A stretch of DNA of 63,865 nucleotides, counting the filler, from Myxococcota bacterium (GTDB taxonomy: Bacteria > Myxococcota_C > UBA6777): NCBI GenBank assembly GCA_023150835.1. It is 3 parts of 3 records of this genome, joined end to end, with 100 filler letters (N's around TTAATTAATTAA, not from the genome) between each part and the next. Parts side by side here need not be neighbours in the genome. Positions count along the whole stretch, not along the records: positions 1 to 21,933 come from JAKLKB010000122.1; 2 more parts are not named here. The stretch is one strand, 5' to 3'. The translations under genes and the position numbers were made by a program. The notes under the pieces are model-generated. The model did no database searches. It was given only the letters and a program-made list of their open reading frames with translations, and had not been told where the DNA came from. Below, piece after piece: positions 180 through 43,774 of the stretch. Each line of letters begins with the position of its first letter. The first letter of the stretch is position 1.

Positions 180-223
180 GGTGATACCCCACAGATCGAC
201 CCAATCGCAGCAAGGTTGGGGTG

Positions 224-1330: not shown

Positions 1331-1484
1331 CAAGATCTCCTTTTGAGGTGACGACTTTTCCCTTGACAAGGGGAAAGAAGGGGGTGACAAAATCGCGTGG
1401 GGTGCCTTACGGAGGATCGGGTGATCGGGTTCATCCTGCGGCATAAGAATATCGATCGAAGCGCAGAGAGCGGAGAGTGCAGGG

Positions 1485-2879: not shown

Positions 2880-2929
2880 TCCACGGACAACACGGAAAGG
2901 GGCACGAAAAGGGAAGGGGAGAGGCAAGT

Positions 2930-4753
2930 TCAGCGGTGGAACCATCCGAGCCACCAAGCGACAGCAGCCAAGGCCGAGAGCGAAAGGCCGATGGCAAGGG
3001 AGAGAACGAGGGGGGACGGAGAGCGGGAGGGTGGAGAGGAGAAGGTGTCGTCGAGGCTCGGCGAAGAAGTGGGGGCGGAGAGGGTCTCTTTGGGGGGGGT
3101 GGAGTGAGGGAGGGGCTTGACGGTGCTGATCTCGGCATCGGTGGAGAAGTCGGACTCAGCGAGGAGATGGGGAGGTGGCGAAGGATGAGGGACGCCGGGT
3201 TGTGTTTGGGCATCGGGCGGATCGAGGGGCGGGGGTGTGTGAGGGGCGTGTGGGCGGCGAAGCGTTTCGGGAGGGGGGAGTGTTTTGGAGGCGGATGGAG
3301 GTGGAGTTTGGGAGAGGAAGATATCGATTTCGGCGGAGGTGGCTTCGCTGATGGCGGGAGTGATGGGGGCGTTGGTTTCGTGGCTGGGGGGGGCGGGTGT
3401 GCTGTTGGAGGAGAGGACTTGGGGGAGGGTGCCGGGTTCGGGTGTAAACAGCGGAGAGAAGCGGGAAGTCACTTCGTCGAGGAAGACGACGTTCATTTGT
3501 GCGCCGTCATCTTCGTCGAACGCGACGGGTAGATCGGGGAGATGAACAGCGGTGATGTCATCTTTGGGGGCGTTTTTGGCGATGGTTGCGTCATCATCGA
3601 AGGCGTTAGGAAGTTGGGAAGGGGAGAGCAGACTGGCTCCAGCGGAGGCGTAGGCGTCAAGCGCGGGATTGAAGGGTCGGGTTTGATCGTCGGCGAGTCC
3701 TTCGATCTTGATCTTGAGGACGCCGTGGGAATTGGGGACTTGATCGTCGAAGAATTGGGAGGCTTCGTCGAGATCGAGTTCGTTGTCTTTGTGGAAGGGG
3801 TCATCGGAGATCTGGACACGTTGGACCCATTGAGCGAGGGTTTGGTCGTTGTGTTGGGGGGCTTCTTCTTCGAGGACGCGCAGGAGGGCGCGTTGGAGGG
3901 CAGCGGGCGAGGCGAAGCGGTCGTCGGGGTGTTTTTCGAGCAGGCAGAGGGAGATTTCTTGGAGGAGGACGGGGATGGCTTGTTTTTCGGAGATCATGGG
4001 AGGGGGAGGTTCGATCTGGATGGCGCGAAGGGTTTCGACAAGAGAGACACGGGGATAAGGAGGTTGTCCGACACACATCTCGAAGAGGATGGTGCCGAGG
4101 GCGAACATCTCGGAAGCAGGACTGCGTTCGTGAGTTGTCACTTGTTCGGGGGAGAGGTAGGTGGGATGTCCTTCGAGCAAGCCGTTTTCGGTTTCGTAGC
4201 GAGGGCGAAAGATCTTGGCGACCCCAAAGTCGAGAAGGCAGGTGGAACCGTCTTTATCGATGCCGATGTGTTCGGGGGTGAGGTTGCCGTGTAAGAAGAT
4301 CTCGGTGGGATCGGCATAAGCGGAGCGTTTTTCATTTTTGCTGTAGGCGTATTGAAGGGCGTCACAGAGTCCAAGGAGGATGCGCGCTGCGTGGTGCCAA
4401 GGGATGGGGAGATCATACTGAGCGAGGTGAGAGAACATGATCTGGCGCAGGGTGTGCCCCGAAAAGAAGGGCGTGACGAGGTAGAAAAAATCGTCGGAGA
4501 CACCGTGAAGAATGGGAAGATAAAGGGTGGGATGGTGGAGCGTTGCGAGGCGTTCGAGTTCGTTGTTGAGGGCGTTGTGGAGCTTGGCGTCTTGGAGATG
4601 CTCGCGCAAGATTAAGCGAAGCAAGACCTCGACAGGAGGGGCGTCGGGTTGGAAGTATTGGGCAACCCACAATTGGATTTGATTTTTGGGAGCGAGGGGC
4701 TTTCCCAAGATCAGGCAGCCGTCTGCAAGGGCATCTCCAGCTTTTAGGGTCAT
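2930..4753 (-). CDS. Membrane-anchored Ser/Thr kinase-like protein, probable pseudokinase
   Basis: Kinase fold (LLDFGVAK, YLSPEQ, EMFALG, DRF) but no Gly-rich loop, no VAIK lysine, and HGNL in place of HRDL. Pro-rich linker and C-terminal TM helix. Confidence 0.8.
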   Translation of the reverse strand: MTLKAGDALADGCLILGKPLAPKNQIQLWVAQYFQPDAPPVEVLLRLILREHLQDAKLHNALNNELERLATLHHPTLYLPILHGVSDDFFYLVTPFFSGHTLRQIMFSHLAQYDLPIPWHHAARILLGLCDALQYAYSKNEKRSAYADPTEIFLHGNLTPEHIGIDKDGSTCLLDFGVAKIFRPRYETENGLLEGHPTYLSPEQVTTHERSPASEMFALGTILFEMCVGQPPYPRVSLVETLRAIQIEPPPPMISEKQAIPVLLQEISLCLLEKHPDDRFASPAALQRALLRVLEEEAPQHNDQTLAQWVQRVQISDDPFHKDNELDLDEASQFFDDQVPNSHGVLKIKIEGLADDQTRPFNPALDAYASAGASLLSPSQLPNAFDDDATIAKNAPKDDITAVHLPDLPVAFDEDDGAQMNVVFLDEVTSRFSPLFTPEPGTLPQVLSSNSTPAPPSHETNAPITPAISEATSAEIDIFLSQTPPPSASKTLPPPETLRRPHAPHTPPPLDPPDAQTQPGVPHPSPPPHLLAESDFSTDAEISTVKPLPHSTPPKETLSAPTSSPSLDDTFSSPPSRSPSPLVLSLAIGLSLSALAAVAWWLGWFHR

Positions 4754-4757
4754 ATCC

Positions 4758-7700
4758 TCACCGCAATGTCAGAAAAAGAATGATACCCACAAGAATCAAG
4801 ATCACAAGGATGTTCCCGCCGATCCAGAGCATTTTGATGCGTTGTTTTCTTCGTTGGATCGCCTCGATAAGTCGAACATCCAATACGGTGTGTTCTCCAC
4901 CGCTATCGCGGAGATCATCGGGATCGCGTGGTTTGGGGAGGGGAAGGTTTTGGGGGGCGACGCGGGGAGGAGCGGTTTGCGTCAAACGGTAGTATTCAGG
5001 CGGGGGTTGGTTGGGATCGTAAGCAGCTCCTGCGAGCGGGGAAACTCCTTGTCGGATGGTTGCGGCTTCTTCGTCTGCGCGGGAGGGAGCGGGCGATTCT
5101 GCAAAATGGAAAGAGAGCGCAGGGAGTTCGCCTTGGGACATGAAAGCGATATCGCTAAAGATCACTTCGTCTTGGGGATCTTCGTAGGGGGAGGGGAGCT
5201 TGGGGGACAGGGAGATGTTGGTGGGGGCTTCGTCGGGATCGTCGTCTTCGCCATTTTGTTGTGGGGTGTTGGCTTGTGGGGCGCGTTGGATATTGGTGGA
5301 TTCGCCTGCGAGGTCGTGCTCTTCATCTTCTGCTTCGTAGTCTGCTTCGTAGTCTGCTTCGTAGTCTTTGTTCTCAAAAAGGCTGGAAAAGGCGGAGGGT
5401 GAAGGGTTTTTTGAAGAAGTGTGGGCGTTGTTTTGGGAGGGATGGATGTGTGTGATGTGGTAAGCTGCGGAGATATCGATGCCATGAGAGGGAGGGGAGG
5501 TGTTGGGTGCGAGGAGAGCAGCAGCGACTTCGGGAGAGATACCTTCGATGAGCGGTGCGGTACTTTGGAAGGCAAGCTCGGTGGCGATATTTGGGCGTGG
5601 TTCGGGGTTTACGGGTGAGGGGCGGGGCGAGAGAAGCTCCGCAGAACCGAGCGAAGGAAGAGAAGTGGGGCTTACAGCGGAGTCGAGCGAAGGGCGGGGC
5701 GAGGGAAGTTCAGGGGAGCCGAGTTTGTGGAGGGGTGCGGGAAGTTCAGGGGAGCCGAGAGAAGGAAGGGAAGTGGGAAGTTCAGCAGAGCCGAGTTTGT
5801 GAAGCGGGGATTGTGTGAGCGTCGAGGCGAGGAGGTGGGAATGGCTTTGTGTGAGGGGATTTGGGAGAGCGGGAGCGGAATAACGCGGTACATCGGACGT
5901 GTCGGCGAGAGGGTCGGGCGTTTTTGCGGAAGGAGCAAGGGTTGGCGGATCGGTGTCGGGTGCTGCGAGGACAGACGTGAGGGTCGGGTCGTTTGGGGTT
6001 GATTCTTGCGGATCTTGCGCTGCTTGTGCGGGGGGATCGATGGGATCGATGGGATCGATGGGACCGATGGGGCCGATGGGGAGGGGCGACAGGGGGATGG
6101 AAGAAAGCGCTGTATGGGCAGCGTTTGGAGAAGCAAGAGAGAGGTCGAAGTCGAGGGCGTCGGGTGGTGCGGGCGGTTGCAAGAAAGGGTCGGAAAAGTC
6201 ATCAAGAAACGAGAGTGGATCGTTGGAGGGTTTGACGTTCATGGAGAGGGCGTCAAGCAGGGAAGAGGAAGGCGAATTGGTTTTTGGGGGAGGGGCGCCA
6301 AAGAGCGAAGAGGACGAGCGAGTTGGTGCAGTGGGCGGGAGTGCGGGTGCAGTGGGCGGGAGTGCGGGTGCAGTGGGCGGAAGTGCGGGTGCAGTGGGCG
6401 GGAGTGCCGAAGTGAGGGGCGATGCGGGCGGAGCGGGTGGGAGTGCCGAAGTGAGGGGCGATGCGAGCGGAGAGGGCGGGAGTGCCGAAGTGAGGGTCGA
6501 TGCGAGCGGAGAGGGCGGGAGTGCCGAAGTGAGGGTCGATGCGAGCGGAGAGGGTGGGAGAGGGAGTTGCGCGTCGGAAGATTGGGCGTCGGTGATGTAT
6601 TCGGTGTCTTCGGAGGTAAAGTTGGGGAGTGCGACGTTGGGGTCGGTGGGGCGGGAGTGTTCGTATTTGGGGAGTAGATGAGGCGGAAGTGCCGAGACAG
6701 CGATGATCTTGGAGATGATCGAGGAAGGTGTCGAGGATTCGGATTCGGCGGAGGGTTGGTTGGTTGGTGCGGAGTTCGACACGGAGGGAGGGGAGGATGG
6801 GTTGATTTCTTTGGCGTAGTTGCGCAAGACATGTCGCAACTGGTCTTTTTCAGCGGAAGGAAGTACGGAATCGCGGAGGGTTTGATCGGTGGGGATGCCG
6901 ATGACCGCGCCTGGGGGGAGATGAGAAGGGAGGTTGATCTTGGCTTCTTTGGAGGGGGTTGTGCGATGCTCTTCGGAAGAGGGTCGTTTTTGTGCGGCTT
7001 TGCGGAGTTCTTCGAGAGGTGCAGCCATGGTGGGTTCGATGGCGGCGTCATCTTCGGGGAAGAGGCTTTCAAGGGGTGCGGGTGGTTGGCGCATGGGGTT
7101 GGGAGTGTGGGAGTCGAACAAGCGCATGGGTGCGGGAGAAGGGGTGTAGGAGGGTCGGGTGGCGTCGGTGGCGATCAGGGGTTCGCTTGGGGAGGTATCG
7201 GCGGGAGGGGCGGGGAGAGGGTTGGGCTGTGCGTATCGTTGAGCGAATTGGAGGAGGCTATCGCGGTGAAAGCCGGCGGGGGCGTCTTGTCGGATGATCT
7301 GTTCGAGTGCGCGTAGAACTTGTCGAGCGTCTTGAAAGCGGTCGTCGGGTTTTTTTTCGAGGAGCTTGAGGACCAATTGGTCGAAGGAAGCGGGGATACG
7401 GGGGGAGCGTTTTCGGAGGGGTTCGGGCTGATTTTCGAGGATGGCGTAGATCAGGGTGGGGAGCATATCACCGAGAAAAGGGCGTTGTCCGGTGCAGAGT
7501 TCGTACATGATGATGCCAAGGGCGAAGAGGTCGGAGCGGAGGTCTTGGGGGCGTGCGGTGATCTGTTCGGGGGACATATAGGAAGGGGTGCCTTTGATGA
7601 CGCCCGTTTGGGTTTTATGTTGGACGCTGGAGGCTTTGGCCATACCGAAGTCGATGATCTTGATGAAGCCATCGACGGTGAGGAGCATATTTTCGGGTTT

Positions 7701-8162
7701 GAGGTCGCGGTGGATCAGGTCAAGAGGTTTGCCATCGCGCCCGACGCTGGTGTGCGCGTAGAAGAGGCCCTTGCAGACGCCGATCATCATTTGTGCGACA
7801 AGTGTCCAAGGAAGAGGTTGTCCTGTTTTTTGGACGTGATCTTCGAGGATGCGCCCGAGGTCTTGGCCTCGGATGAGTTCCATGACGATGTAGTCGAGTT
7901 CGTTGTGTTGGCCGATGTCGTAGATCTCGACGATGTTGGGGTGTTGGAGTTGTGCGGCGAGGTGGGCTTCGTTGAGGAAGATCTCGTGAAGTTTGGGGGT
8001 TTCGAGGGCTTTGGCGTGGACGATCTTGATGACGACGTCTTTGGAGAATCCACCGACTCCAAGTTGCTGTGCCTTCCAGACCTCGGCCTGTCCACCTTTT
8101 CCAAGGCGCGCTTCGACGATGTATTTTCCGCCTGCGATGGATGTGCCTTCTTTGACGATCAT
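4758..8162 (-). CDS. Ser/Thr protein kinase with long Pro/Ser-rich region and C-terminal TM helix
   Basis: LGKGGQAEV, VVIK, IHRDLKPEN, DFG and YMSPEQ are all intact. Start set at MIVKEG (8162). Internal ALPPSPLASTLTS and ALPPTAP repeats. Confidence 0.92.
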   Translation of the reverse strand: MIVKEGTSIAGGKYIVEARLGKGGQAEVWKAQQLGVGGFSKDVVIKIVHAKALETPKLHEIFLNEAHLAAQLQHPNIVEIYDIGQHNELDYIVMELIRGQDLGRILEDHVQKTGQPLPWTLVAQMMIGVCKGLFYAHTSVGRDGKPLDLIHRDLKPENMLLTVDGFIKIIDFGMAKASSVQHKTQTGVIKGTPSYMSPEQITARPQDLRSDLFALGIIMYELCTGQRPFLGDMLPTLIYAILENQPEPLRKRSPRIPASFDQLVLKLLEKKPDDRFQDARQVLRALEQIIRQDAPAGFHRDSLLQFAQRYAQPNPLPAPPADTSPSEPLIATDATRPSYTPSPAPMRLFDSHTPNPMRQPPAPLESLFPEDDAAIEPTMAAPLEELRKAAQKRPSSEEHRTTPSKEAKINLPSHLPPGAVIGIPTDQTLRDSVLPSAEKDQLRHVLRNYAKEINPSSPPSVSNSAPTNQPSAESESSTPSSIISKIIAVSALPPHLLPKYEHSRPTDPNVALPNFTSEDTEYITDAQSSDAQLPLPPSPLASTLTSALPPSPLASTLTSALPPSPLASPLTSALPPAPPASPLTSALPPTAPALPPTAPALPPTAPALPPTAPTRSSSSLFGAPPPKTNSPSSSLLDALSMNVKPSNDPLSFLDDFSDPFLQPPAPPDALDFDLSLASPNAAHTALSSIPLSPLPIGPIGPIDPIDPIDPPAQAAQDPQESTPNDPTLTSVLAAPDTDPPTLAPSAKTPDPLADTSDVPRYSAPALPNPLTQSHSHLLASTLTQSPLHKLGSAELPTSLPSLGSPELPAPLHKLGSPELPSPRPSLDSAVSPTSLPSLGSAELLSPRPSPVNPEPRPNIATELAFQSTAPLIEGISPEVAAALLAPNTSPPSHGIDISAAYHITHIHPSQNNAHTSSKNPSPSAFSSLFENKDYEADYEADYEAEDEEHDLAGESTNIQRAPQANTPQQNGEDDDPDEAPTNISLSPKLPSPYEDPQDEVIFSDIAFMSQGELPALSFHFAESPAPSRADEEAATIRQGVSPLAGAAYDPNQPPPEYYRLTQTAPPRVAPQNLPLPKPRDPDDLRDSGGEHTVLDVRLIEAIQRRKQRIKMLWIGGNILVILILVGIILFLTLR

Positions 8163-8395
8163 GGCGTTGCTTCTTTTTGGGCTACAGCAAGGAGACTCTT
8201 GCGAAGTGATGGCAGAATCAAGCAACAAGCGGCATGGGTTGATGATGGTCGGGGGTGGCGCTGGTCTGGGCCGCATGTTCTTTGACAGGGTACTGATGCG
8301 CGGTTTTCTGTCAAGAGAACAGACCGCCTTGAGCCGAGTACACCGCATCGAATCAAGAGAGGGCTAACGCGGTTGGGTTTGTTTTGTGGGCTGGG

Positions 8396-13717: not shown

Positions 13718-16384
13718 GTGTTAGAAGGTTTGCGAGCGTGGTGGAGTCGTTTTTTGCATCCGGGGAGTGCGTTGGCGTACCGACCGATCTTGCGCCATGT
13801 CAACGCGCTAGAGGCGAAGATGCAGGGGATGTCGGCATCGGATCTTGCGGCACAAACAGCGGTGTTTCGTGGGCGGCTAGAGCGAGGTGCGCCGCTGTTG
13901 TCTTTGATCCCTGAGGCTTATGCGACGGTGCGTGAAGTGGCGCGGCGCGAGTTGGGGATGCGTCACTTTGATGTGCAGATCTTGGGTGGTGTGGCGCTGG
14001 CACACGGTAGCATCGCAGAGATGAAAACGGGTGAAGGAAAGACGTTGGTGGCGACCTTGCCTGCGTACCTGTATGCTTTGCAAGGAAAAGGCGTGCATGT
14101 GATCACGGTCAACGATTATCTTGCGGCGCGAGATGCCGAATGGATGGGAAAGATCTATCGCTTTCTTGGCCTTGAGGTGGGGGTGGTGTTGGAGGATATG
14201 GGCGAAGGTTCGGCGGAGACAGAACGCAGACAAGCCGCGTATCGCGCTGATATCACGTATGTCACCAACCACGAAGTGGTTTTTGATTATCTGCGCGATC
14301 ATCTTGCGACAAGCCCCGATGAGCTGGTTCAACGCCCACCGCATTTTGCGATCGTGGACGAAGTCGATCTGTTGTTGATCGATGAGGTCCGTACGCCCTT
14401 GATTATCAGCGGCCCTGCGCACGAAGATGTGTCCTTGTTTGCGGAAGTCGATAAGGTCGTGCGCAAGCTACAGATGGGTCCTGATATCCGCTTTCATGCA
14501 CGCACCAAGACCGCCACATTGACAGAAGTCGGGCAAGAAAAGGTCGAGTCGATGTTGGGGCGCAATCTCAGCGAACCGAGCCAGCTTCCGTGGTTTCATG
14601 CGATCCACCAATCGGTCCAAGCACATGGGGCCTACAAGAGAGACGTCGATTACATCGTCAAAGGCGGAGAAGTCCAACTGATCGATGAGCATACAGGCCG
14701 CGTCTCTCCTGATAAGCGGTTTTCAGATGGCCTGCACCAAGCCCTCGAAGCCAAAGAACGCTTGCGCGTACAGGCCGAAGATCGGACCTTTGCGCGGATG
14801 AGTTATCAACAGTACTTTCGGTTGTATCCGCGCCTTTGTGGGATGACGGGAACGGCAGCTTCGGAGAAACAAGAGTTTCAACAAACCTATGGTCTGCAAG
14901 TCGTGACGGTCCCCACCAACCAGCCCGTTCAACGCAAGGATTTTATGGACGCGATCTATGCGACCAAGCGCGAAAAACACGAAGCTGTCGTCGCAAGCAT
15001 CGAAGAGATCCACAAAAGCGGGCAGCCGATCTTGGTGGGGACGACTTCGGTCGAAGAATCCGAGCAGCTTGCGCGGCTTTTGCGAAAGAGCGGCCTTTCT
15101 TGCGAGATCCTCAACGCCAAAGATCACGACCGCGAAGCCGAGATCATTGCACAGGCCGGACGGCGCGGCGCGATCACCATCTCCACCAATATGGCGGGGC
15201 GCGGAACCGATATCTTGCTCGGCGGAAACCCCGAAGCGAGTCAAGCCACTGACTCTCCCAAAAAGAGTCCACAGAAAACACGGAAAACACGGAAAGAAGA
15301 AGGGAAGCCGTTGAAAGCAGAAGGAGCGATGGGAGAGGCGGCATCGAAAGAACGCGACACAAAGTACGAGGAACACGCAGCGGTAGTCCAAGCAGGGGGC
15401 CTCTTTGTGATCGGAACAGCGCTCCACGAGTCTCCGCGCCTTGACAACCAGCTTCGCGGTCGTGCAGGCCGCCAAGGTGATCCCGGGGCCTCGCAGTTCT
15501 TTGTCTCTCTCGAAGACGAGATATTCGAAAAGTACGGAGAGACCGAGATATCCGCCATCCATCTCGATCTCGAAGAACGAGAGCACCCCGAAGGCGAAGA
15601 GATCGAAGACCGAAATGTCCGCGCTATCCTCTATGCCTTGCGCGACAAAGTCGCCTTTGAACACCGCTCCGAACGCGCCGAAACCCTCAAATACGATACC
15701 GTTGTCCACCAACAGCGCGAGCAGATCTATCTGTGGCGGCAATCCATCCTGCTCGGCGCTCCGACCCTCGACGAACACCGCGCTCAGGCTCACGCCATCC
15801 TCGCCGAAGTCCTCGCCGATCAAGTCCATCTCGCTCTCCACGATCTCCAGCCCGACGAAGATCTCCAAGCCATCTATGCCGAACTCCAAGATATCTTGCG
15901 CGAGATCTTCCGCACCCCCCTCACCGTCCCACGACTCCCCGAAAGCCGCGACCTTCCATCCTCCGTCACACAATCCCTACTCCCCGCCGTCCAAGAAGCC
16001 TTTGAGCAGCGTTTCACAGGCAAGGATGCCCAACCGCGCGCTACCATCGATCTCCAAAACACCCTTCTTCTCGAAAGTATCGACGACGCTTGGATCGATC
16101 ACCTTAACGCCATCGAACGCCTCGAAGACAACGTCAGTCTCTACGGCTACGCCGAACAAGACCCGATCGTGATCTTTCGCAAAGCCGCAGGACTCCAATT
16201 CGGCGAACTCTTGGCCGAGATCCGCTTGCGTGCCGTCAGCCTCTGGTTCGCCCTTGAACTCGATTCCTCCGACCATTCCGCTTCTTCCACATCCGTATCT
16301 CCCTCCAAGAAAAAGGCCGATAAGCCCAAGCATCCGCTCCTCCACCCCTCCAACCGCAAACGCCGCAAACGCAAAATGGCCTAA
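13718..16384 (+). CDS. secA: Preprotein translocase ATPase SecA (possibly an accessory paralogue)
   Basis: AEMKTGEGKT, HVITVNDYLA.RDAEWM, IVDEVD, GLHQALEAKE, GMTGTA, TNMAGRGTDI, QLRGRAGRQGDPG. GTG start at 13718 follows a purine-rich RBS. No C-terminal SEC-C zinc motif. Confidence 0.93.
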   Translation: MLEGLRAWWSRFLHPGSALAYRPILRHVNALEAKMQGMSASDLAAQTAVFRGRLERGAPLLSLIPEAYATVREVARRELGMRHFDVQILGGVALAHGSIAEMKTGEGKTLVATLPAYLYALQGKGVHVITVNDYLAARDAEWMGKIYRFLGLEVGVVLEDMGEGSAETERRQAAYRADITYVTNHEVVFDYLRDHLATSPDELVQRPPHFAIVDEVDLLLIDEVRTPLIISGPAHEDVSLFAEVDKVVRKLQMGPDIRFHARTKTATLTEVGQEKVESMLGRNLSEPSQLPWFHAIHQSVQAHGAYKRDVDYIVKGGEVQLIDEHTGRVSPDKRFSDGLHQALEAKERLRVQAEDRTFARMSYQQYFRLYPRLCGMTGTAASEKQEFQQTYGLQVVTVPTNQPVQRKDFMDAIYATKREKHEAVVASIEEIHKSGQPILVGTTSVEESEQLARLLRKSGLSCEILNAKDHDREAEIIAQAGRRGAITISTNMAGRGTDILLGGNPEASQATDSPKKSPQKTRKTRKEEGKPLKAEGAMGEAASKERDTKYEEHAAVVQAGGLFVIGTALHESPRLDNQLRGRAGRQGDPGASQFFVSLEDEIFEKYGETEISAIHLDLEEREHPEGEEIEDRNVRAILYALRDKVAFEHRSERAETLKYDTVVHQQREQIYLWRQSILLGAPTLDEHRAQAHAILAEVLADQVHLALHDLQPDEDLQAIYAELQDILREIFRTPLTVPRLPESRDLPSSVTQSLLPAVQEAFEQRFTGKDAQPRATIDLQNTLLLESIDDAWIDHLNAIERLEDNVSLYGYAEQDPIVIFRKAAGLQFGELLAEIRLRAVSLWFALELDSSDHSASSTSVSPSKKKADKPKHPLLHPSNRKRRKRKMA

Positions 16385-16407
16385 TCTCCATCCGCCCGTA
16401 GTACGAT

Positions 16408-16524
16408 CGTCAAAGATGTAGGGGCAGCCCCCTGTGGCTGCCCAACCGTCAAAGATGTAGGGGCAGCCCCCTGTGGCTGCCCAACCGTCAAAGATGTAGG
16501 GGCAGCCCCCTGTGGCTGCCCAAC
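16408..16524 (+). repeat. Three perfect tandem 39-bp GTAG-type REP units (family C)
   Basis: CGTCAAAGATGTAGGGGCAGCCCCCTGTGGCTGCCCAAC x3, with no spacers. Related or degenerate copies at ~32400-32520, 43500-43540, 43820-43860, 52350-52410, 57775-57900 and 63700-63742. Confidence 0.9.
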
Positions 16525-16779
16525 AATCGGGCAATGACAGCGAATCGCACCGACCCTTGCGATCACACATCTCTCGGATATCGTATCATAAGAAATCCGC
16601 CCGTCGTGTGATTGTCAAACGTAGGCGCAGGCTGCCCAACAATCGGGCGTCTGTGTACTCTCCCTCGATCACAGATTACTCGGATATCGTATGACCCCTT
16701 GACCCCGTATTGGCGGGGCACACAGGCGTTTTTCAAACGAACACCTGCGCCGCTTGAACATCCGCAAACACGGGGGGTC

Positions 16780-18819
16780 TTAGCTGTAGAGGGCTTCTTG
16801 GAGGCGGGTGGAGTAATCGAGCAATGTTTCGTAGGGGGCGAGGTTGAGCAGCCGCTCGCACAATCCGTCGAGGGTGTGTCGCATCGAGAAAAGGGCAGGA
16901 TCGCTGTGGCAATTCAGGATCTTGAAATGGTTGCGCATTCGTTGCCACAGGACGCGCCAGACTTCGGGCTGTAGCACACCGTGTGCCTGTGGATCGAGCA
17001 GCATCCCATTCAACAAACGACCCGCCTTTCGCAAGTGCAAAAAGGTTCCCATGGTACGAGCGCTCTGCGTCAACCTACGCTTTACCGTGTGTGCTTTTTG
17101 TTCGCCCCAAAAAAGCAGTAAGAGCCTATCTTCCGCCGACAACGGATCGGATGAAACCGCTTGGTCCGAAAAAGACAGACAAGAAAGCGCATAGCGCCAA
17201 TTCAGCGCCCGCAGAGAAGAAGGGCGAAAATTCAGCAGCAATGTTTCCACGCGGGGAATGAAGATCGAGGCTGCGTAGCCCATCTCTTCCACCACCGTCG
17301 ACGGGTAGAAAAGCAAGGGGTCGTGGGCATCCGTTGGCCCGAATAGTCGTCGCGGCTGGTCTCGAAACAAGCGCTCCATCCATTCGGCACACAAGGGGCT
17401 TTTCAAACAAGCCAGACTCCACAAGGTCTCCCACGTCGGCTCGGCTTCTTTGGGCAGCAGCCAGATATAGGTTTCGAGCGATTCCAACATCTCGACGACT
17501 CCACCGCATCCGACGGTGAGGAGCAGTCTGTTGAGCCATGCTTCGTTGTTTTGCTGTCGCGCCCACCGCCACAAAGGTTCGAATCCCTCTGGATGGCGTT
17601 GTGCATCCATCAACAATGCCTTGAACGCCTCTTCTTCTTCCACGCGATCTTGTTTGTGCAAGATCGACCACAAAAATCCGCGTATCTTGTCGTTTGCACA
17701 CGACGCCATCGGCAAAAACAGATGTCGGCGAAAGGCATCATACGCATGATGGTGGGCTTGTTTGTAGAGTTCTTCGCACTCAGGCAGCGAAAGCCCTTGC
17801 CAATGCGACAAAGCCATCGCTGCACAAGTGGATGTCTTGCCATCGGTATGCTCCAAACGCTGCAACATCCGATGCAACTGTTCTTTGTCGAGGGCTGTCG
17901 GTTCGATCTCAGCGAGGGCTTGTACAGCCATCGGCCAAAGCTCAGGTAGCGGTCCTTCGAGCGCATCGATCCATCGGTCCACCAGTTCGCCTCCCGCGCT
18001 ACCCAAGCTGCCCAACAGGCCATACAAACCTTCCCATGCTTCGCATTCCTTGCGGTTTTTTTGGCTTCGCACAGGGATCTGTTGGCCTAGGCGCACAAAA
18101 GCCGCCTCAAGCAACGCAGGCGCACGAAGGGATTCTTGATCAATGACACCCCGTAAGGTCGCTTCTTGGAGTCCGAATGGCAGGTCTTCTTGCAAACATT
18201 CGCCCAACACTTCGATGGCTTGGGGATGATCGACTCTTGCGATCTGGTGCAATATCTCGCTGCGGATGCGTACCGCTGTTTGTGTACCCAATGCTTCTTT
18301 CATCAACGGCAATGCTTCACGCCATCTCCGATCAACGGGATGAGATACGTCTGTGGGTACTCGCGCAACCATCGCCCCTTGCCTGACTTGTAGCTGTTCT
18401 AAAGTCCATGCGGTCGCTTGGATTTGGGCTTGCTGCTTTTGAAGCTGAAGCATCAGCAGGATCGCTGCATTGTTGCGATGTTTGCCTTTCGCAGACAAAA
18501 AGCGTGCAAAGGGCGAAGTGCCTTCGTTGTCGGGATGAGGGCCTTCTTGCTCCCATCCTTGCCAATCCTGCGCACCTGCTCGACGCAGCCATCCGACGGG
18601 TTCTTCCAATCCTTGCGGATCGAGGTGCGCCAAGCTCCTCACCAACGCCGTCGGTTCGATATCTTTGTCTTCCATCAGTTCCGCCCACGCCCGTTTTTGC
18701 GAGGACGTCCACGCCCCTCCTGCCGCAAGATACCGCTCCAACAACAGCGGAAACGCTCGCGGTGCGATGTCTGGCACTCCCTCCAACAGCCTCCACCGAA
18801 ACGATGCCCAAGCTTCCAT
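16780..18819 (-). CDS. Hypothetical alpha-helical (HEAT-repeat-like) protein
   Basis: 679-aa Leu/Ala/Trp-rich ORF with HEAT-like segments (VRIRSEILHQIARVDHPQAIEVLGECL). No family recognised. Confidence 0.65.
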   Translation of the reverse strand: MEAWASFRWRLLEGVPDIAPRAFPLLLERYLAAGGAWTSSQKRAWAELMEDKDIEPTALVRSLAHLDPQGLEEPVGWLRRAGAQDWQGWEQEGPHPDNEGTSPFARFLSAKGKHRNNAAILLMLQLQKQQAQIQATAWTLEQLQVRQGAMVARVPTDVSHPVDRRWREALPLMKEALGTQTAVRIRSEILHQIARVDHPQAIEVLGECLQEDLPFGLQEATLRGVIDQESLRAPALLEAAFVRLGQQIPVRSQKNRKECEAWEGLYGLLGSLGSAGGELVDRWIDALEGPLPELWPMAVQALAEIEPTALDKEQLHRMLQRLEHTDGKTSTCAAMALSHWQGLSLPECEELYKQAHHHAYDAFRRHLFLPMASCANDKIRGFLWSILHKQDRVEEEEAFKALLMDAQRHPEGFEPLWRWARQQNNEAWLNRLLLTVGCGGVVEMLESLETYIWLLPKEAEPTWETLWSLACLKSPLCAEWMERLFRDQPRRLFGPTDAHDPLLFYPSTVVEEMGYAASIFIPRVETLLLNFRPSSLRALNWRYALSCLSFSDQAVSSDPLSAEDRLLLLFWGEQKAHTVKRRLTQSARTMGTFLHLRKAGRLLNGMLLDPQAHGVLQPEVWRVLWQRMRNHFKILNCHSDPALFSMRHTLDGLCERLLNLAPYETLLDYSTRLQEALYS

Positions 18820-18845
18820 CTTTCACCCTCCATTTGTCGCACAAT

Positions 18846-18979
18846 GTTGTGGGGTTCCACTCCACGCTCTGTCGTTGTGGGGTTCCATCTCACGCTCCAT
18901 AGCTGTGGGGTTCCACTCCACGCTCTGTCGTTGTGGGGTTCCACCTCACGCTCCATAGTTGTGGGGTTCCACCCCACGC
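18846..18979. repeat. 28-bp tandem repeat x5, an amplified end of the family B element
   Basis: GTTGTGGGGTTCCA(CTC/TCT/CCT/CCC)CACGC units at 18846, 18874, 18902, 18930 and 18958, with no unique spacers. Confidence 0.9.
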
Positions 18980-19238
18980 CCCGCAAGGGGTCGCAGCCCC
19001 CTTGACCCCATATTGGCGGGGTGGGCGGTTGTATTTCAAACCAACAGCCCTGCCGCTTGAAGGTTTGCGAACACGAGGGTTTTTGACGTTTCCGCTACGA
19101 CCTTTCTTTGTGGCTTGACCGCATTGGTGAACCTCGCGCATATTTGCGAGAGATCAGAACGTGCCTACAGATTCAGACCCGTGTTGTTAAGGGGGAAAAC
19201 CTCGGGTGTTGAGGCAAAAAACGCAATGGAGGACAGTC

Positions 19239-21509
19239 GTGGAGAAAAAAGGACTGATGGAAGAATTAGAGCAGTTGGGCAAGCTGCACCAAGCAGGTGT
19301 GCTTTCGGCTGCGGAGTTCGAGGCCGAGAAAACGGGGATCTTGTCGCGATTGCGTGCGTTGCGAGAAAAGAGCCATCCCGCAGGCGAGAGCAGCGGTGTT
19401 CACGGCGGAGATGCTTTTCGGACGGGTGCTGCGGAGGTTCAGCCAGCAAGAACACCTGCACCGTTGTTTTCTCCCGACCCAGCGGGATCAGGGGTTTGTG
19501 GGGTGATCGGGGAGCGGTATCGATTGGTGAGGATGCTCGGTCGGGGCGGCATGGGTGAAGTGTGGTTGGTCGAAAACTTCCGATTGGCGCGAGTTTTTGC
19601 GCTGAAGTTTCTGGCAAGTGAATTGGTGGGATCGTCGGAAGCTTTAGCGCGGATGCATCGAGAATACGAAGTGCTTGAAAAGTTGTCGCACCCAAATATC
19701 GTGCGCGTGTTCGATATGGATCAAGACAAAGAGAGCAGCCGGTGGTATCTGCGGATGGAATATGTGGAAGGCGAAGACTTGGGGAAAAAAATCGCTTTGG
19801 CTTCGAAACAAGGGCAGAAGCCGTTGTTTGCGATGCAGCAGATCGTGGGTTGGTTGGGGCAACTTGCAGAGGCGCTGGATTATGCCCATCAGCGGGGGAT
19901 CTTGCATCGCGATATCAAACCCGCGAATCTGATGCTTACAGCCGATCAGCATCTAAAAGTGATGGACTTTGGGATCGCACGCGTCGTCAGTGGAACGCAT
20001 ACGACCCAACACACCGCGATGATGGGGTCGATGTATTACACCGCCCCTGAGTTGCTGCGTGGTCAAGCAGCCACCCCGTCAACGGATATCTATTCGTTTG
20101 GCGTGTTGGTGTACGAGCTGCTAACGGGCAATTTGCCTGTGGGACGGTTTGCACTGCCATCTTCGTTGGTGGCGGGGTTGCCGAAGCGTGTCGATGATGC
20201 TGTCGAACGAATGTTGATGATGGAGCCTAAACAGCGGGGAGAATCGCTGCGCGAAGTGTGGTTGCCTTTGCGGGACGCGCTTGGTGGACAGCCCACGCAA
20301 TCCGTTGTTCTGCAAAAAACAGATCCACCACCGACGAAGACGGAGGCGACTACGCCGCCACCCGCGAAGCCGACGCTCGGGAAGAAAGGGGTGGTAGAGG
20401 AAAAGTCGGAAGAGAAAAAGAATCGGGAACTTGCGGAGGAGCGACGCGAAGCGAATGCCTCGCAAGAGCGCACGGGGCGGAAAAAGAGCGGCTGGGGGCG
20501 GTGGGTGGCTGCGTTCGTGGTGTTGGGGTTATGTGGCTGGGGCGTGGTGTGGGGTGTGGGCGTGTACCAAGAAGCGCAAAGACGGGAAGAAGCGCAAAGA
20601 CGGGAAGAAGCGCAAAGACGGGAAGAAGCGCAAAGACGGGAAGAAGCGCAAAGACGGCAACGAAATTCGCGGAGTGATGGCAAGGTCAAGCGTGTGTTTC
20701 AAATCGGGGATGCGGAGTACAAGACGCGATGGATTCCAGCAGGGGAATTTGTGATGGGGAGTCCGTCGAATGAGCCGAATCGAAGCTCAAACGAAGGGCC
20801 ACAGCGGACGGTGCGGATCAGTGAGGGATATTGGATGATGGAGAACGAAGTGACGCAGGGGCAATGGAAAGCAGTGATGGGAGCGGCGAATAACCCACCG
20901 AGTTTTTCATCGTGTGGGGACAAGTGCCCGATGGAAAGCGTGTCGTGGCATCAAGCCGCAGCGTATGCGAACAAGCTGTCGAAGAAGCAAGGCGTGGAAG
21001 AGTGCTTTACGTGTCGTGGCGAGGGAAAGGGCATACGGTGTGACGGATTGGGAAACAAGGGGAGAGATTATGTGAAGTGCAAGGGATGGAGGTTGCCAAC
21101 CGAGGCGGAGTGGGAATACGCAGCGCGAGCAGGAACAACGAAGGCGTATCACACAGGGGATTGTATCTCGGCAGCACAAGCGAACTACAACGGGAACTAC
21201 CCCGAAACGAATTGCGAGAAGGGAGAGTACCGGAAACAGACGATAGAGGTGTGCGGCTTGGTGCGGAACGCATGGGGGTTGTGCGATATGCACGGAAATG
21301 TGTGGGAGTGGGTGTATGATGGGTACAAGGACACAGCCTATCAGGAGCTAGGAGCCGTTGATCCAGTCTACGTAGCAGCGGCGTCGTACCGCGTCTTACG
21401 GGGCGGTAGTTGGTACTACTACGCGCAGTTCTTGCGGTCAGCGTATCGCTCCTGGTTCGCGCCTACGGACGCCAGCAACTTTCTCGGTTTTCGGTTGCTC
21501 AGGCATTGA
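19239..21509 (+). CDS. SHOCT - Ser/Thr kinase - TM - FGE-sulfatase (CLec) receptor; candidate DGR target
   Basis: N-terminal SHOCT-like helix (LEQLGKLHQAGVLSAAEFEAEK). Intact kinase (LGRGGMGEV, ALK, HRDIKPAN, DFG, APE). TM helix and REEAQR repeat. FGE domain (IPAGEFVMGS, EVTQ, RLPTEAEWEYAARAG, DMHGNVWEW, RVLRGGSW...GFRL). Start is GTG 19239 (after GGAGG) or ATG 19257. Confidence 0.92.
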   Translation: MEKKGLMEELEQLGKLHQAGVLSAAEFEAEKTGILSRLRALREKSHPAGESSGVHGGDAFRTGAAEVQPARTPAPLFSPDPAGSGVCGVIGERYRLVRMLGRGGMGEVWLVENFRLARVFALKFLASELVGSSEALARMHREYEVLEKLSHPNIVRVFDMDQDKESSRWYLRMEYVEGEDLGKKIALASKQGQKPLFAMQQIVGWLGQLAEALDYAHQRGILHRDIKPANLMLTADQHLKVMDFGIARVVSGTHTTQHTAMMGSMYYTAPELLRGQAATPSTDIYSFGVLVYELLTGNLPVGRFALPSSLVAGLPKRVDDAVERMLMMEPKQRGESLREVWLPLRDALGGQPTQSVVLQKTDPPPTKTEATTPPPAKPTLGKKGVVEEKSEEKKNRELAEERREANASQERTGRKKSGWGRWVAAFVVLGLCGWGVVWGVGVYQEAQRREEAQRREEAQRREEAQRREEAQRRQRNSRSDGKVKRVFQIGDAEYKTRWIPAGEFVMGSPSNEPNRSSNEGPQRTVRISEGYWMMENEVTQGQWKAVMGAANNPPSFSSCGDKCPMESVSWHQAAAYANKLSKKQGVEECFTCRGEGKGIRCDGLGNKGRDYVKCKGWRLPTEAEWEYAARAGTTKAYHTGDCISAAQANYNGNYPETNCEKGEYRKQTIEVCGLVRNAWGLCDMHGNVWEWVYDGYKDTAYQELGAVDPVYVAAASYRVLRGGSWYYYAQFLRSAYRSWFAPTDASNFLGFRLLRH
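21390..21503 (+). other. DGR variable-region-like segment (VR) of the kinase-CLec gene
   Basis: Colinear, gap-free 114-nt alignment to the TR at 39573-39686. Hand count: 20 of 32 TR adenines differ versus 18 of 82 non-adenines, the latter mostly at codon third positions. Confidence 0.6.
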
Positions 21510-21765
21510 GGTTTGGCGTTTTACCGTTTCAGGGTTTGCGAGGACTTAGGGGATGGAAAGGGGAGGTGGTAGGGAAGAAGAAACGGAGCGAAGGCGGAGT
21601 AGCGCGAAGAAGCGAAGCCTGAAGCGCACGGAGACGGAGCGGAGCGGTCGGGGAAGGGGGGTTTGGGGGGGGGTCCCCCCCAAGCGGGCGGGAAACGGTG
21701 AAGTGATTGCGGACAGGCAGAGGGTTTGGGGGGAGAGATGCGGACAAGAAGGAGTGTGGGAAGGT

Positions 21766-21933
21766 GATGACGAGTTTTTTGGGTGGTGTGGAGTACCAAA
21801 ATAGGTTGATGACAGGTTTTTTGGGTGGTGTGGAGTGCCAAAATAGGCTGATGACAAGTTCGTTTGGGTGGTGTGGAGTGCCAAAATAGGCTGACGACAG
21901 GTTTTTTGGGTGGTGTGGAGTGCCAAAATAGGC
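21766..21933. repeat. 42-43-bp tandem repeat, at least 4 copies, truncated by the contig end
   Basis: GATGACAGGTTTTTTGGGTGGTGTGGAGTGCCAAAATAGGCT-like units at 21766, 21808, 21850 and 21893. Confidence 0.9.
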
Positions 21934-22033
21934 NNNNNNNNNNNNNNNNNNNNNNNNNNNNNNNNNNNNNNNNNNNNTTAATTAATTAANNNNNNNNNNN
22001 NNNNNNNNNNNNNNNNNNNNNNNNNNNNNNNNN
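21934..22033. other. Artificial contig-joining linker
   Basis: N44-TTAATTAATTAA-N44, a six-frame stop spacer. Confidence 0.98.
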
Positions 22034-38278: not shown

Positions 38279-39124
38279 TCAATACCTCACCAACCGAAAG
38301 CCGAAACCAGAACTGCGGCCCGACGTTCCATAGGGATCGCGATACGCCGCACGCGCATACCACAAATTAAAGTATCAACTACCACCCCGCACCACACAGC
38401 GGTCCGCTGGCTTGCTTTGGAGTGGATCCTGCGTCGCCATCCCTTCATACGAACCGTACATGTCCATCGTCCACTCCCACACATTCCCCAACATATCCTT
38501 CAGTCCCCATGCGTTCGCCTTCTTCCCACCTACGGGGTGCGTCTTTTTGTCGCTGTTGCCACCATACCAAGCCACCTCATCAACATCCCCGTACCACGCT
38601 CCTGTTGTTCCCGCTCGTGCTGCGTATTCCCACTCTGCCTCTGTCGGCAACCTCCATCCTTTGCATTGGAAGATCCTTCGATCCGTCACGGCACAAGGCA
38701 CCCGCTTTTGCGCTTCCGACAACTTGTTCGCAAACGCTCGCGCATCATGCCAGTTCACCTTCTCCACAGGGCAGTTGTCGCCGCATTTCTGAAAATGCGA
38801 TGGATTCGACCCCATCAACGCCCTGTACTGTCCTTGTGTCACTTCCGTCTCCAACATCCAAAATCCCTTGCTGATCTGAACCCTTCGCTGCGGCCCCTCA
38901 TCGTATTGCCGCCCCGCCTCCCCTATCGGACTCCCCATCACAAATGATCCCGCTGGAATCCATCGCATCGCAAACGCCGATCCTCCCGCCACAAACGTCT
39001 TTCGTGTTCCTGCTCTTCGCGCTCCTCCTTTTCCCTGCGAATAGCCCTCTCCACCACCCCACAATGCCAAACCAAACACCAACACCAAACCACACACTCC
39101 CACCATCCACCGCTGTCTTTGCAT
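38279..39124 (-). pseudogene. Secreted FGE-sulfatase/CLec protein with an in-frame nonsense codon in the VR-equivalent region
   Basis: All FGE motifs are present. RGGS is followed by TGA (38375-38377) where Trp (TGG) is conserved. The same frame continues YFNLWYARAAYRDPYGTSGRSSGFGFRLVRY to a stop at 38279-38281. Confidence 0.8.
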
Positions 39125-39399
39125 CTTTACCACTCCTTTTTTCAATCTGGCATTTTTTCTCTAGATTTGTGGGGTGCCACCCCATACCTCGCCATAGACT
39201 GTCGCCCATTGACCCCGATATCGGCGAACAGAGCATCGTTTTTCACACCAACGGCTCTTTCGCTTGAGACGCCTCGAACACGGGGGATTGTCGGCCAGCG
39301 GCCTTCATCCCATCCGAAACACAGGCTTTTCGACCGACGGTCTCTGTTCCGTCCCAAACACAGGTTTCTTGGCCAAATGCGCCGCTCATCTCCTTTTTT

Positions 39400-39572: not shown

Positions 39573-39686
39573 GCTGAGCAAGCGGAAACCAAGGTTGTTG
39601 TTGCGATTCGTCGGCGCATTGTTGTTGCGATTCGCTGAGCGCACGTTCCTCGCGTTGTTGTTCCAACTACCACCTCGATTCACCCG
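39573..39686 (-). repeat. DGR template repeat (TR)
   Basis: Minus strand CGGGTGAATCGAGGTGGTAGTTGGAACAACAACGCGAGGAACGTGCGCTCAGCGAATCGCAACAACAATGCGCCGACGAATCGCAACAACAACCTTGGTTTCCGCTTGCTCAGC. This reads RVNRGGSWNNNARNVRSANRNNNAPTNRNNNLGFRLLS, an AAC/AAT-rich copy of an FGE C-terminus directly after the RT stop. Confidence 0.95.
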
Positions 39687-39698
39687 CTTCGTACTGTT

Positions 39699-40695
39699 TC
39701 ATGCTTCGACCCCTCCGCCTATCCCTTCAAAGAAGCGACGGCGAAACGGCAATGTATGCCTGCCCAAACTATGCCCAAGTCGCGCTGCACTACAAGCTGC
39801 CAGCCTGACTTCCGATACCTTTCCCGCCCGATGCTCCGACCACAATCGCCGAAACCCTCTACAGAAACGATGCTTCCGCGCCGCTGTCCAACGCAACCCG
39901 CTCCGAAAAACCCGCACACCCAAAAAGCGCACACCTTCCGTCACCGGACAAAGCCTTGTCACCGACCTTTTCAAATCCAAACACAATTCGCCCACAACGA
40001 TCTCTTGCAGCGCAAACAAAGCATCCCATAACGCTGCTTTCTCCGCACCAAAGCACAAGATGTCGTCCATGCACCGACTCTTTCGCCGCGTGATCCAGCC
40101 GACCCAAATAAAAGTTCGCAAAATGTTGGCTCGTGAGGTTCCCTATCGGCAACCCCTTACCTTCACGCGATCCCTCCAACGGCACCCCAAGGATCTTCGC
40201 AAATAGCCGATGCAACGCCCTCTCCCCAAATTTTCGCTCCAACGCAGCTTGAAGCACCCCGTGATCGATGCTCTCAAAAAATCGCTCGATATCCAGTTTC
40301 AGCACATACGGATAACGCCGTGCATAGGTCTGCGCTGCTTCCAAAGCCCGTAAGCTGCCTTTGCCTTTTCGACAAGCGTAACTGTCCCTTGTTGCATAAG
40401 CCTCCAAATGCGGCTCCAGTACACCGCATAGCGCGTGATGCACCACCCTGTCCCGAAATCCTGCCGCCGAGATCCGACGTGCCTTTGGATCGCACACCCA
40501 AAAATGCCGCAATCGTCCCGGTTCATAACCGCCCGAACGTAGCTCTTCTTGCAACCGCAATATCTCCGCTTCACGATCCCACAAAAAAGCCTGTACATCT
40601 TTCCTTTGGCGTTTTCCCTTCGCAGCTCGTTCTGTCGCCTTCCACAACGTCTCAAACGCACAAACCTGCTCAAATAGCCCATCTACCCGCTTCAT
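39699..40695 (-). pseudogene. DGR-class reverse transcriptase, frameshifted at the catalytic motif
   Basis: MKRVDGLFEQ..., DPKARRISAAGFRDRVVHHAL, SYACRKGKG, LKLDIERFFESIDH, GLPIGNLTSQHFANFYL. At ~40077 the frame shifts from DHAAKE to RCMDDILCF, followed by GVRFLGVRVF. The start overlaps the avd stop (ATGA). Confidence 0.88.
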
Positions 40696-41087
40696 TGGCT
40701 CGCACCTATCGACTTCAACCAACCACCCAACATCCGCCCCGCTTCCACTAGCCTTTGACTCGTCTGCTCCAAACCACCGTGGCTGAGGTAGCCTCGTGTG
40801 TGGCACAACCGCACCAACAAACGCAATCGCTCCAGCTTCCGATTCACACCTTCCAGTATCGTGCGCTTTTCCTTCCGATAACGCGCTTCGATCAATTCCT
40901 CGAATATCTCCAACGCCAGATCCTCCACCCGCCTTGTCAGCGTCATCCGTGCCGCCTTTGGGAACTTTTCGGTTCGCTCCAACAACTCCCCTACAAATCC
41001 CTCCCACAACGTCAACAACGGTAACGACGCGACGTTCCCCTGACCTTCTTTCCCTTCCTCACTTTTCTCCGTCTTTTCCCGTATCAC
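40692..41087 (-). CDS. avd: DGR accessory variability determinant (Avd / four-helix bundle)
   Basis: KFPKAARMTLTRRVE...LRLLVRL...L.EAGRMLGGWLK, typical of bAvd-like proteins. Translationally coupled to the RT. Confidence 0.9.
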   Translation of the reverse strand: MIREKTEKSEEGKEGQGNVASLPLLTLWEGFVGELLERTEKFPKAARMTLTRRVEDLALEIFEELIEARYRKEKRTILEGVNRKLERLRLLVRLCHTRGYLSHGGLEQTSQRLVEAGRMLGGWLKSIGASQ

Positions 41088-43674: not shown

Positions 43675-43774
43675 NNNNNNNNNNNNNNNNNNNNNNNNNN
43701 NNNNNNNNNNNNNNNNNNTTAATTAATTAANNNNNNNNNNNNNNNNNNNNNNNNNNNNNNNNNNNNNNNNNNNN
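43675..43774. other. Artificial contig-joining linker
   Basis: N44-TTAATTAATTAA-N44. Confidence 0.98.

Follow-up and report, generated by a model that had tools for sequence, protein, structure and literature searches.

The gene at positions 19206–21509 of the window, by which we mean the whole 63,865-nt stretch of DNA that was analysed, probably encodes a one-pass receptor kinase whose outer tip is diversified by a diversity-generating retroelement (DGR), the template being a sister template repeat (TR) elsewhere in the genome (Table 1). This kinase is, very probably, an active DGR target, because the changes seen in a contig from an independent sludge study cluster in its variable repeat (VR), mostly on columns where the TR of the window has adenine. 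The sister TR and its reverse transcriptase (RT) are presumably both present in the genome.

Table 1. Features of the kinase–FGE gene and of the related DGR cassette; positions count along the window
Feature	Coordinates	Strand	Basis
Receptor Ser/Thr kinase–FGE gene	19206..21509	+	767 codons from GTG 19206 (ORF list, translation, Pfam)
SHOCT-like N-terminal motif, residues 19–45	19260..19340	+	Pfam 24.3 bits, under the Pfam cut-off for SHOCT of 27 bits
Hanks-type protein kinase domain	19518..20141	+	Pfam Pkinase E 7.5e-50
Transmembrane helix, single, residues 435–453	20508..20564	+	Kyte–Doolittle 19-residue mean 1.99
REEAQR stalk, 18-base tandem repeat	20568..20660	+	4 exact REEAQR units
FGE-sulfatase/C-type-lectin domain, non-catalytic, residues 509–766	20730..21503	+	Pfam FGE-sulfatase E 4.2e-50
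Variable repeat (VR), last 38 codons	21390..21503	+	Gapless alignment to TR; 7 X5 changes at 21430–21481
Element behind VR and stop codon (candidate target-recognition element)	21504..21550	+	Conserved behind paralogous VRs: both L022 VRs, G001 C172
G9-T-C7 hairpin	21663..21683	+	−12.1 kcal/mol, z −1.06
N-TTAATTAATTAA-N linker, contig join	21934..22033		N run; kinase contig ends at 21933
FGE gene adjoining cassette	38286..39145	−	In-frame TGA 38377–38375; VR-like end misfits TR
Template repeat of related DGR	39574..39690	−	BLAST; matched by G001 caspase–FGE VR with 17/32 A and 2/78 non-A mismatches
DGR reverse transcriptase gene, broken	39699..40695	−	Two frames; RVT_1 on N-terminal part alone
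bAvd accessory gene	40692..41087	−	PF22296, E 3.4e-15

By sequence the product is a Hanks-type Ser/Thr protein kinase, the catalytic motif set of its kinase domain being complete: GRGGMG (the G-loop), ALK, HRDIKPAN, DFG and APE. Besides the GTG, ATG 19257, immediately 5′ of the SHOCT motif, is a possible start. Residues 435–453 are the sole stretch of the protein with a Kyte–Doolittle 19-residue mean above 1.6, and Arg/Lys-rich sequence flanks this helix on its N-terminal side. An X13 contig lacks 20569–20640 (72 bases, four units), so the REEAQR copy number of the stalk is different in another strain. This composition supports the reading of the protein as a receptor kinase that spans the membrane once and has an FGE-type C-type-lectin domain outside, the outward topology being presumed. 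The initial annotation had proposed the order SHOCT, intact kinase, transmembrane helix, REEAQR stalk and FGE/C-type lectin; Pfam and motif searches agree with it, the SHOCT match being weak. The product also fits the NCBI name ‘bifunctional serine/threonine-protein kinase/formylglycine-generating enzyme family protein’, borne by many proteins that match both Pkinase and FGE-sulfatase, the nearest of which are from Myxococcota MAGs and share 57–78% identity with the query across about half of its length.

In catalytic FGEs, the active-site Cys pair sits in the C-terminal segment. The final 60 residues of the kinase–FGE protein contain no Cys, and in the alignment with FGE 6muj a Cys-bearing insert is present in the 6muj chain and absent from our protein; with the C-terminal Cys pair missing, the outer domain is ruled out as a catalytic formylglycine-generating enzyme. 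Its closest solved relative is TvpA (2y3c, E 5e-25).

The C-type-lectin/FGE fold carries the VR at its C-terminal end, as in CLec/FGE-type DGR targets. Aligned without gaps to positions 39686–39573 of the minus strand, the VR mismatches 20/32 TR adenines and 18/82 other bases (Fisher P 1e-4), which reproduces the 38-codon alignment reported initially together with every fate listed there for the TR Asn codons (TAC TAC TAC, TTC, TAT, TCC, TGG, TTC, GAC, AGC, AAC, TTT). Within the 104-base BLAST core, 69% of bases match and there are no gaps, with mismatches at 18/30 A and 14/74 non-A. The adenine enrichment that had been put forward as a DGR footprint, about 62% against about 22%, was recovered in its figures but not in its specificity: when the TR core was aligned with the FGE C-termini of 62 unrelated FGE loci without a visible DGR, the mean mismatch was 62% at A and 34% at non-A. 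Because these control ends reach the same A mismatch, we reject the A-enrichment against the window TR as stand-alone evidence.

What decides the case is the variation between sludge samples. We compared contigs of X5, a run from an independent sludge study, with the kinase gene of the window, a comparison that reveals differences between samples, heterogeneity within a sample being invisible to contigs. Over the kinase gene, the listed X5 contigs differ at 12 letters in 2243 bases: 7 of these are inside the VR, within 52 bases (binomial P 3e-7 for the clustering), and 5 are in the 1992 listed bases that cover the remainder of the gene. Six of the seven VR changes lie on columns with A in the window TR (P 0.003); at the seventh, the window TR has G, and VR and TR differed at that column already. 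By codon position, six of the seven are at positions 1 or 2, and the changes form three adjacent pairs and one single, which is the AAC-to-NNC signature. This VR evidence comes from one 251-base Logan contig at depth 6.6, and X5 is the one run compared here, X7 being without cover over 21346–21741 and X13 having a depth of 2 there. Since the changed stretch is flanked by 64 bases on its 5′ side and 135 on its 3′ side that match the window exactly, the X5 contig represents the same gene and no paralogue, and since the remaining gene differs by just 5 letters in the listed contigs, the VR changes are recent. Variation between samples that is restricted to the 38 C-terminal codons and hits TR-adenine columns bears out their initial designation as a DGR variable repeat. 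All the changes but the lone one at 21430 are held in the 3′ half of the VR, the 5′ Asn-templated codons being unchanged, so one full-length retrohoming event is insufficient, and a partial 3′ conversion with one extra change must be assumed.

N linkers occur in the window at 21934–22033 (Table 1) and at 43675–43774, so kinase and TR stand on different contigs of one metagenome bin, and the 18 kb between them are an artefact of the joining; bAvd and the frameshifted RT are likewise on another contig of the bin than the kinase. Relative to the intact 353-aa RT of a cyanobacterial locus (L028), the RT shifts frame near 40080 and lacks about 23 bases just before the MDD box (pairwise BLASTP; MAFFT placed the C-terminal fragment wrongly). 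Both this frameshift and the TGA of the adjoining FGE gene are known from the assembly sequence alone. That FGE gene mismatches the TR at 20/30 A and 24/74 non-A, the latter count ruling it out as the cognate target.

It is unlikely, in our judgement, that the DGR shaped the end of the kinase formerly and that retrohoming has since ended, with the X1/X5 difference being an old standing polymorphism or gene conversion among the FGE ends of paralogues. The sole RT seen is broken and the cassette beside it looks decayed, as such a history would have it; the 5′ Asn-templated codons are identical in both samples; and the sister TR was not found by VR DNA or by a 20-base VR word in G001–G005, which are all five genomes at the family and order levels, incomplete ones among them. 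Searches with the RT protein and Pfam RVT_1 found no DGR RT in G001 (86% complete) or G002 (64% complete), the sole match being a 721-aa ORF that bears two RT domains. Of the seven X5 changes, two (21464 and 21465) are letters of the VR of L022, a metagenome contig, as gene conversion between paralogues might leave, but the other five do not match L022. The near-identity of the remaining gene speaks for recent change, and the third codon base is kept while adenine columns are targeted, which conversion by a random paralogue would not respect.

Related loci bear on a further reading, very improbable in our view, in which no DGR acts and an ordinary paralogous FGE-kinase has binding loops that evolve fast under selection, its resemblance to the TR being homology. 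A DGR is present within the flanks of 1 of the 21 full-length kinase–FGE loci from other genomes, the other 20 being without one as this reading expects, and the A-column mismatch of the control FGE ends, about 62%, is on its side as well. Against it, however, stand the 7 changes that crowd into 52 bases of a gene almost identical elsewhere, with six on adenine columns and three adjacent pairs at codon positions 1 and 2, and the variation of paralogues at Asn-templated positions alone, with the scaffold kept. The latter pattern is seen at the C-terminal ends of 11 of the 14 closest kinase–FGE matches (P0002–P0015), the exceptions (P0008, P0011 and P0012) having no readable C-terminal motif. 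An independent case in favour of DGR diversification is L028, where two Pkinase–FGE genes adjoining bAvd and the intact RT match one TR, with 15/16 and 16/17 of their mismatches at A.

Which TR templates a DGR-diversified kinase is indicated by the non-A positions. In the nearest genome, G001, the VR of a caspase–FGE gene (contig C12, L005 1522–3543, minus strand; Peptidase_C14 domain) differs from the window TR at 17/32 A and 2/78 non-A, and the window TR is an authentic TR type with this VR as its cognate type. The non-A departures of the kinase VR from the same TR are partly common to the L022 VR, which argues for a separate template family; L022 is the sole contig from one metagenome scan (1350 bases, two VRs), and its first gene, being cut off, is not callable as a kinase. 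Judged by sequence, TR 39574..39690 is thus a sister of the template of the kinase and not that template itself, in agreement with the initial annotation, which on 18 non-A differences had denied it the role of exact current template. That it is the template after all, the non-A differences being drift or low-fidelity copying at other bases, is scarcely credible and close to refuted: although nothing else in the window matches the VR better, its 14/74 non-A mismatches compare with 2/78 for its cognate VR, several of these differences recur in the independent L022 VR, one X5 change falls where it has G, and its RT is frameshifted. BLAST of the 63,865-nt stretch found no further TR copy matching the VR.

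The sequence conserved behind the paralogous VRs is a candidate target-recognition element. Folding of the flanking sequence showed no hairpin directly behind the kinase VR, the fold of the approximately 45 bases there not being significant (z −0.21). The G/C hairpin described initially is present farther downstream, but a role in the DGR is not borne out: 30 of 200 shuffled sequences reach a fold at least as stable, and the hairpin, 154 bases downstream of the stop codon, is not part of the element that paralogous VRs have in common behind them. We therefore reject it as a DGR cruciform; it is probably unrelated to retrohoming.

In the mechanism that we propose, the intact Ser/Thr kinase and the SHOCT-like motif would be on the cytoplasmic side, and the charged REEAQR stalk would present the non-catalytic FGE-fold C-type-lectin domain outside. 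A DGR RT would copy template-repeat RNA, misreading adenines, and the cDNA would overwrite the 3′ part of the kinase VR, so that about a dozen Asn-templated ligand-contact codons would be recoded and scaffold codons spared. The template would be the sister TR elsewhere in the genome and not TR 39574–39690. Ligand binding outside would presumably switch the kinase inside; that the signal is phosphorylation is an inference, as is any view of what the ligand may be.

Targets of this type have been described, and L028 provides a cyanobacterial example with its cognate TR. In the available excerpts of the respective papers, a class b12 DGR target combines a kinase domain with an FGE-sulfatase CLec1 VR (Wu et al. 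2017, PMC5758913), other DGR targets are annotated as Pkn1/PknD (PMC11661182), and Thiohalocapsa PB-PSB1 has Pkinase-bearing DGR targets (PMC10907252). As far as these excerpts extend, all share with the window gene an N-terminal kinase, a C-terminal FGE-type C-type lectin and a VR at the very end. Unlike those of b12-type targets, the cognate TR and intact RT of the window kinase are not in view; it also differs in its host, an uncultured sludge Myxococcota, and in its added SHOCT-like motif and REEAQR stalk. The same excerpts record remote targets served in trans by non-phage DGRs (PMC5758913, PMC11661182, PMC10907252). Because the literature already contains kinase–FGE targets, remote targets and DGRs that serve several targets, our finding opens no new category, and the novelty claimed in the initial annotation was rated too high. 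Literature searches surfaced no report of a DGR in Myxococcota; the matches listed, by title and abstract, concern retrons and RT classification.

TvpA of Treponema denticola, the prototype FGE-type DGR target, resembles the outer domain of the window kinase in having an FGE fold that lacks FGE chemistry and in bearing its VR on the C-terminal face. It is a surface lipoprotein and is not known to have a kinase domain or a membrane helix. The G001 caspase–FGE protein is of the same lineage as the window kinase and has the same VR scaffold, but it carries a Peptidase_C14 effector where the other has a kinase, and the two VR families are distinct at non-A positions. Mtd of Bordetella phage BPP-1 shares with the window kinase a C-type-lectin tip and mutagenic retrohoming from a TR; it is, however, a phage tail fibre with a cis-linked cassette and a hairpin directly behind the VR, whereas the window kinase shows no such hairpin. 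Mtd retrohoming shows a 3′ bias in transfer. The DGR of TvpA is thought, in the excerpted text of one survey (PMC5758913), to serve seven more related targets.

The finding would add wastewater Myxococcota to the hosts of DGRs, and it lends support to the idea that DGRs of cells tune proteins of signalling and conflict, beyond phage tail fibres, here through the direct coupling of a randomised binding surface on the outside to phosphorylation as the output. Because near-identical populations differ almost exclusively in the VR, they form a natural pair that makes field studies of the retrohoming rate feasible. More tentatively, several sister TRs may serve, in trans, whole families of paralogous receptor kinases and of caspase-like proteases, all with one hypervariable sensor fold in common, with the X1/X5 difference being partial 3′ retrohoming between two treatment plants and one cassette decaying, a scheme that we hold possible but somewhat doubtful. 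If true, the TR network would be a bacterial variable antigen receptor set wired to two outputs.

The ORF at 19206-21509 (+) encodes 767 residues with a protein kinase domain (Pfam E 7.5e-50) and an FGE-sulfatase domain (E 4.2e-50), together with a SHOCT-like motif at 24.3 bits, under the 27-bit cut-off. The full set of Hanks-kinase motifs is present, the single hydrophobic helix (residues 435-453) has Arg/Lys on its N-terminal flank, and four exact REEAQR units lie C-terminal to it; each part of the initially annotated receptor, from sub-cut-off SHOCT-like motif through kinase, single helix and REEAQR stalk to FGE domain, is thus detected. The top solved relative of the outer domain is TvpA of Treponema denticola (2y3c, E 5e-25), the prototype FGE-type target of diversity-generating retroelements (DGRs). 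True FGEs have a Cys-bearing insert in the segment corresponding to the variable repeat (VR, 21390-21503) of the kinase gene; in the kinase protein, Cys is absent from the final 60 residues. The 18-base REEAQR tandem repeat (20568-20660) is variable in copy number, one contig of sequencing run X13 joining 20568 to 20641, with four units dropped. A further Ser/Thr kinase, of 1196 residues and without an FGE domain, is encoded at 4758-8348 (-).

The window joins three contigs of a bin through N-TTAATTAATTAA-N linkers (stop-codon linkers) at 21934-22033 and 43675-43774, so order and distances across these two points are artificial. The kinase gene is terminal on its contig, its VR lying 425 bases from the contig end. 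Its neighbours are housekeeping genes (SecA, a TrmK-like methyltransferase and a cNMP-binding protein), and the DGR cassette lies on a different contig of the metagenome bin. The closest protein hits indicate an uncultured Myxococcota bacterium as host, and most runs that contain the kinase gene are metagenomes of sludge or activated sludge.

Elements of the DGR cassette and changes between populations in the kinase VR
Feature	Position	Strand	Remark
bAvd	41087-40692	-	cassette element
RT gene	40695-39699	-	start 40695; split over two frames
TR	about 39690-39574	-	cassette element
Multi-copy repeat, ~120 bases	39289-39166	-	cassette element
FGE gene	39145-38286	-	in-frame TGA 38377-38375
VR changes in run X5	21430 T>C, 21464 T>A, 21465 A>G, 21474 A>C, 21475 G>T, 21480 T>G, 21481 T>A		Logan contig 21366-21616

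The reverse transcriptase (RT) of the cassette, as assembled, changes frame near 40080 and, relative to the intact RT (353 residues) of the cyanobacterial locus L028, lacks about 23 bases after the LDHAAKE segment and before the MDD catalytic box. The TGA in the cassette FGE gene falls at the expected Trp of the RGGSW motif, and the VR-like end of this gene, with mismatches at 20/30 adenines and 24/74 other bases, matches the template repeat (TR) no more closely than a random FGE would. The TR itself is of a genuine type, since the terminal VR of a 673-residue Peptidase_C14-PEGA-FGE protein (L005 1522-3543, -) from G001, the nearest genome compared (26% of 31-mers in common with the window), differs from it at 17/32 adenines and only 2/78 other bases. 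The N-terminal half of that protein has a homologue in the window, a caspase-like ORF at 42262-41084 (-), which stops just short of bAvd as though the cassette sat inside a formerly fused gene; with this broken ORF, the cassette looks rearranged and is possibly decaying. Strong hairpins (z -5.1) lie downstream of its FGE gene, and the ~120-base repeat accounts for 38 of the 49 matches listed for G001.

The kinase VR aligns without gaps to 39686-39573 (minus strand), and the initially reported 38-codon alignment, its mismatch rates of about 62% and 22% and its codon fates are all borne out: 20/32 TR adenines and 18/82 other bases differ over the full stretch, and 18/30 and 14/74 over the 104-base BLAST core. 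As the control initially proposed, we placed the TR core gaplessly on FGE C-termini of 80 loci from other genomes, of which 71 gave at least 85 aligned bases. In the 62 of these whose loci showed no DGR, adenine mismatch was equally high (mean 62%, against 34% elsewhere); in the nine with a DGR, the aligner chose each locus's own TR. Adenine enrichment against an Asn-rich TR is thus a general property of this fold and has little evidential value. Only a lower non-adenine mismatch, 19%, sets the kinase VR apart, and one control locus has the same value.

That the TR in the window is not the exact current template, as first proposed, agrees with 14 non-adenine departures in the kinase VR. Several of these recur in the VR that begins L022, a metagenome contig recovered with a 20-base VR word, and L022 and the kinase gene also have in common a conserved stretch of about 45 bases past the stop codon. 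The shared departures and post-stop bases point to a template in a second TR family, sister to the window TR. The sister TR was not found in the related genomes G001-G005, nor a DGR RT in G001 or G002, the two incomplete genomes of the genus; a 721-residue ORF with two tandem RVT_1 domains, kept in both (L106-L109; G001 C386, G002 C17), is not a DGR RT. The post-stop bases (window 21504-21550; L022 110-159 and 1310-1350; L007 about 720-770) are kept among paralogous VR-bearing genes though the genes have diverged, and may be a cis element for retrohoming.

Of the 14 best homologues inspected (P0002-P0015), 11 have this scaffold at their end, with variation exactly at the Asn positions of the TR; P0008, P0011 and P0012 have no readable terminal motif. 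G001 contains four or more kinase paralogues (78-81% DNA identity) and a third VR scaffold family, ending IGFRVV, at the ends of FGE genes (L003, L004, L010), implying yet another, putative, template repeat; in L003 and L004 such ends share a contig with kinase-domain matches.

Variation across the VR was compared in Logan contigs of four runs (X1, X5, X7, X13) aligned to 16000-21933. In X1 and X5, the summed contig depth is 47-3700 over two multi-copy segments of this region, 16396-16791 and 18772-19167, and about 5-19 next to them. X1, the probable source run, does not differ from the window over the VR; X7 gives no cover there and X13 almost none, so that the comparison between studies is with X5 only, a run from another study. 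Among the X5 contigs listed, 12 letters differ over 2243 bases of the kinase gene (1/1048, 2/602, 2/372 and 7/251 bases). All seven changes on the 251-base contig fall within the VR, and the first 64 and last 135 bases of the contig match the window exactly (clustering, binomial P 3e-7). Of these changes, six fall on adenine columns of the window TR (P 0.003), six hit codon positions 1 or 2, and four residues are altered. At the one change off the adenine columns, 21464, the window TR has G and the kinase VR already differs, which fits a template with A in that column. The polymorphism proposed for the VR is thus seen as VR-confined, mostly adenine-column differences between populations, at the level of contigs rather than reads: one contig of depth 6.6, in which minor variants are hidden.

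The X5 changes comprise the 3′ third of the VR and one isolated site, the 5′ Asn-templated codons being unchanged. Transfer in the Bordetella phage DGR has a 3′ bias, and we assume that partial 3′ conversion of the VR would produce the X5 pattern. Two of these seven changes match L022 letters, which leaves gene conversion from a paralogue as a minor alternative. On balance, the feature is real, the kinase-FGE gene is very probably a remote DGR target under current diversification, and the window TR is not its template but a sister of it.

The system type is already known. In Wu et al. 2017 (PMC5758913), the target classes include one that combines FGE-sulfatase with a kinase domain (b12) and others that bear proteases, and remote targets are given for non-phage DGRs. 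In multicellular bacteria, the hypermutated putative antigen sensors of Doré et al. 2024 (PMC10907252) have Pkinase among their domains, a 2024 MAG survey (PMC11661182) has Pkn1-/PknD-annotated proteins with a CLec-borne VR as frequent targets, and Kaur et al. 2020 (PMC7159879) place DGR-linked FGS domains in conflict systems. L028 confirms that the Pkinase-FGE target class is real: two such genes, adjoining bAvd and an intact RT, differ from one TR with 15/16 and 16/17 mismatches at adenines. Of the 21 control loci (from the 80) matching the query from the kinase domain onward, it is the one with a DGR in its flanks. New here are the host group, evidence that two or more TR families serve paralogues of the kinase and caspase types, and a naturally occurring population pair whose differences are almost confined to the VR.
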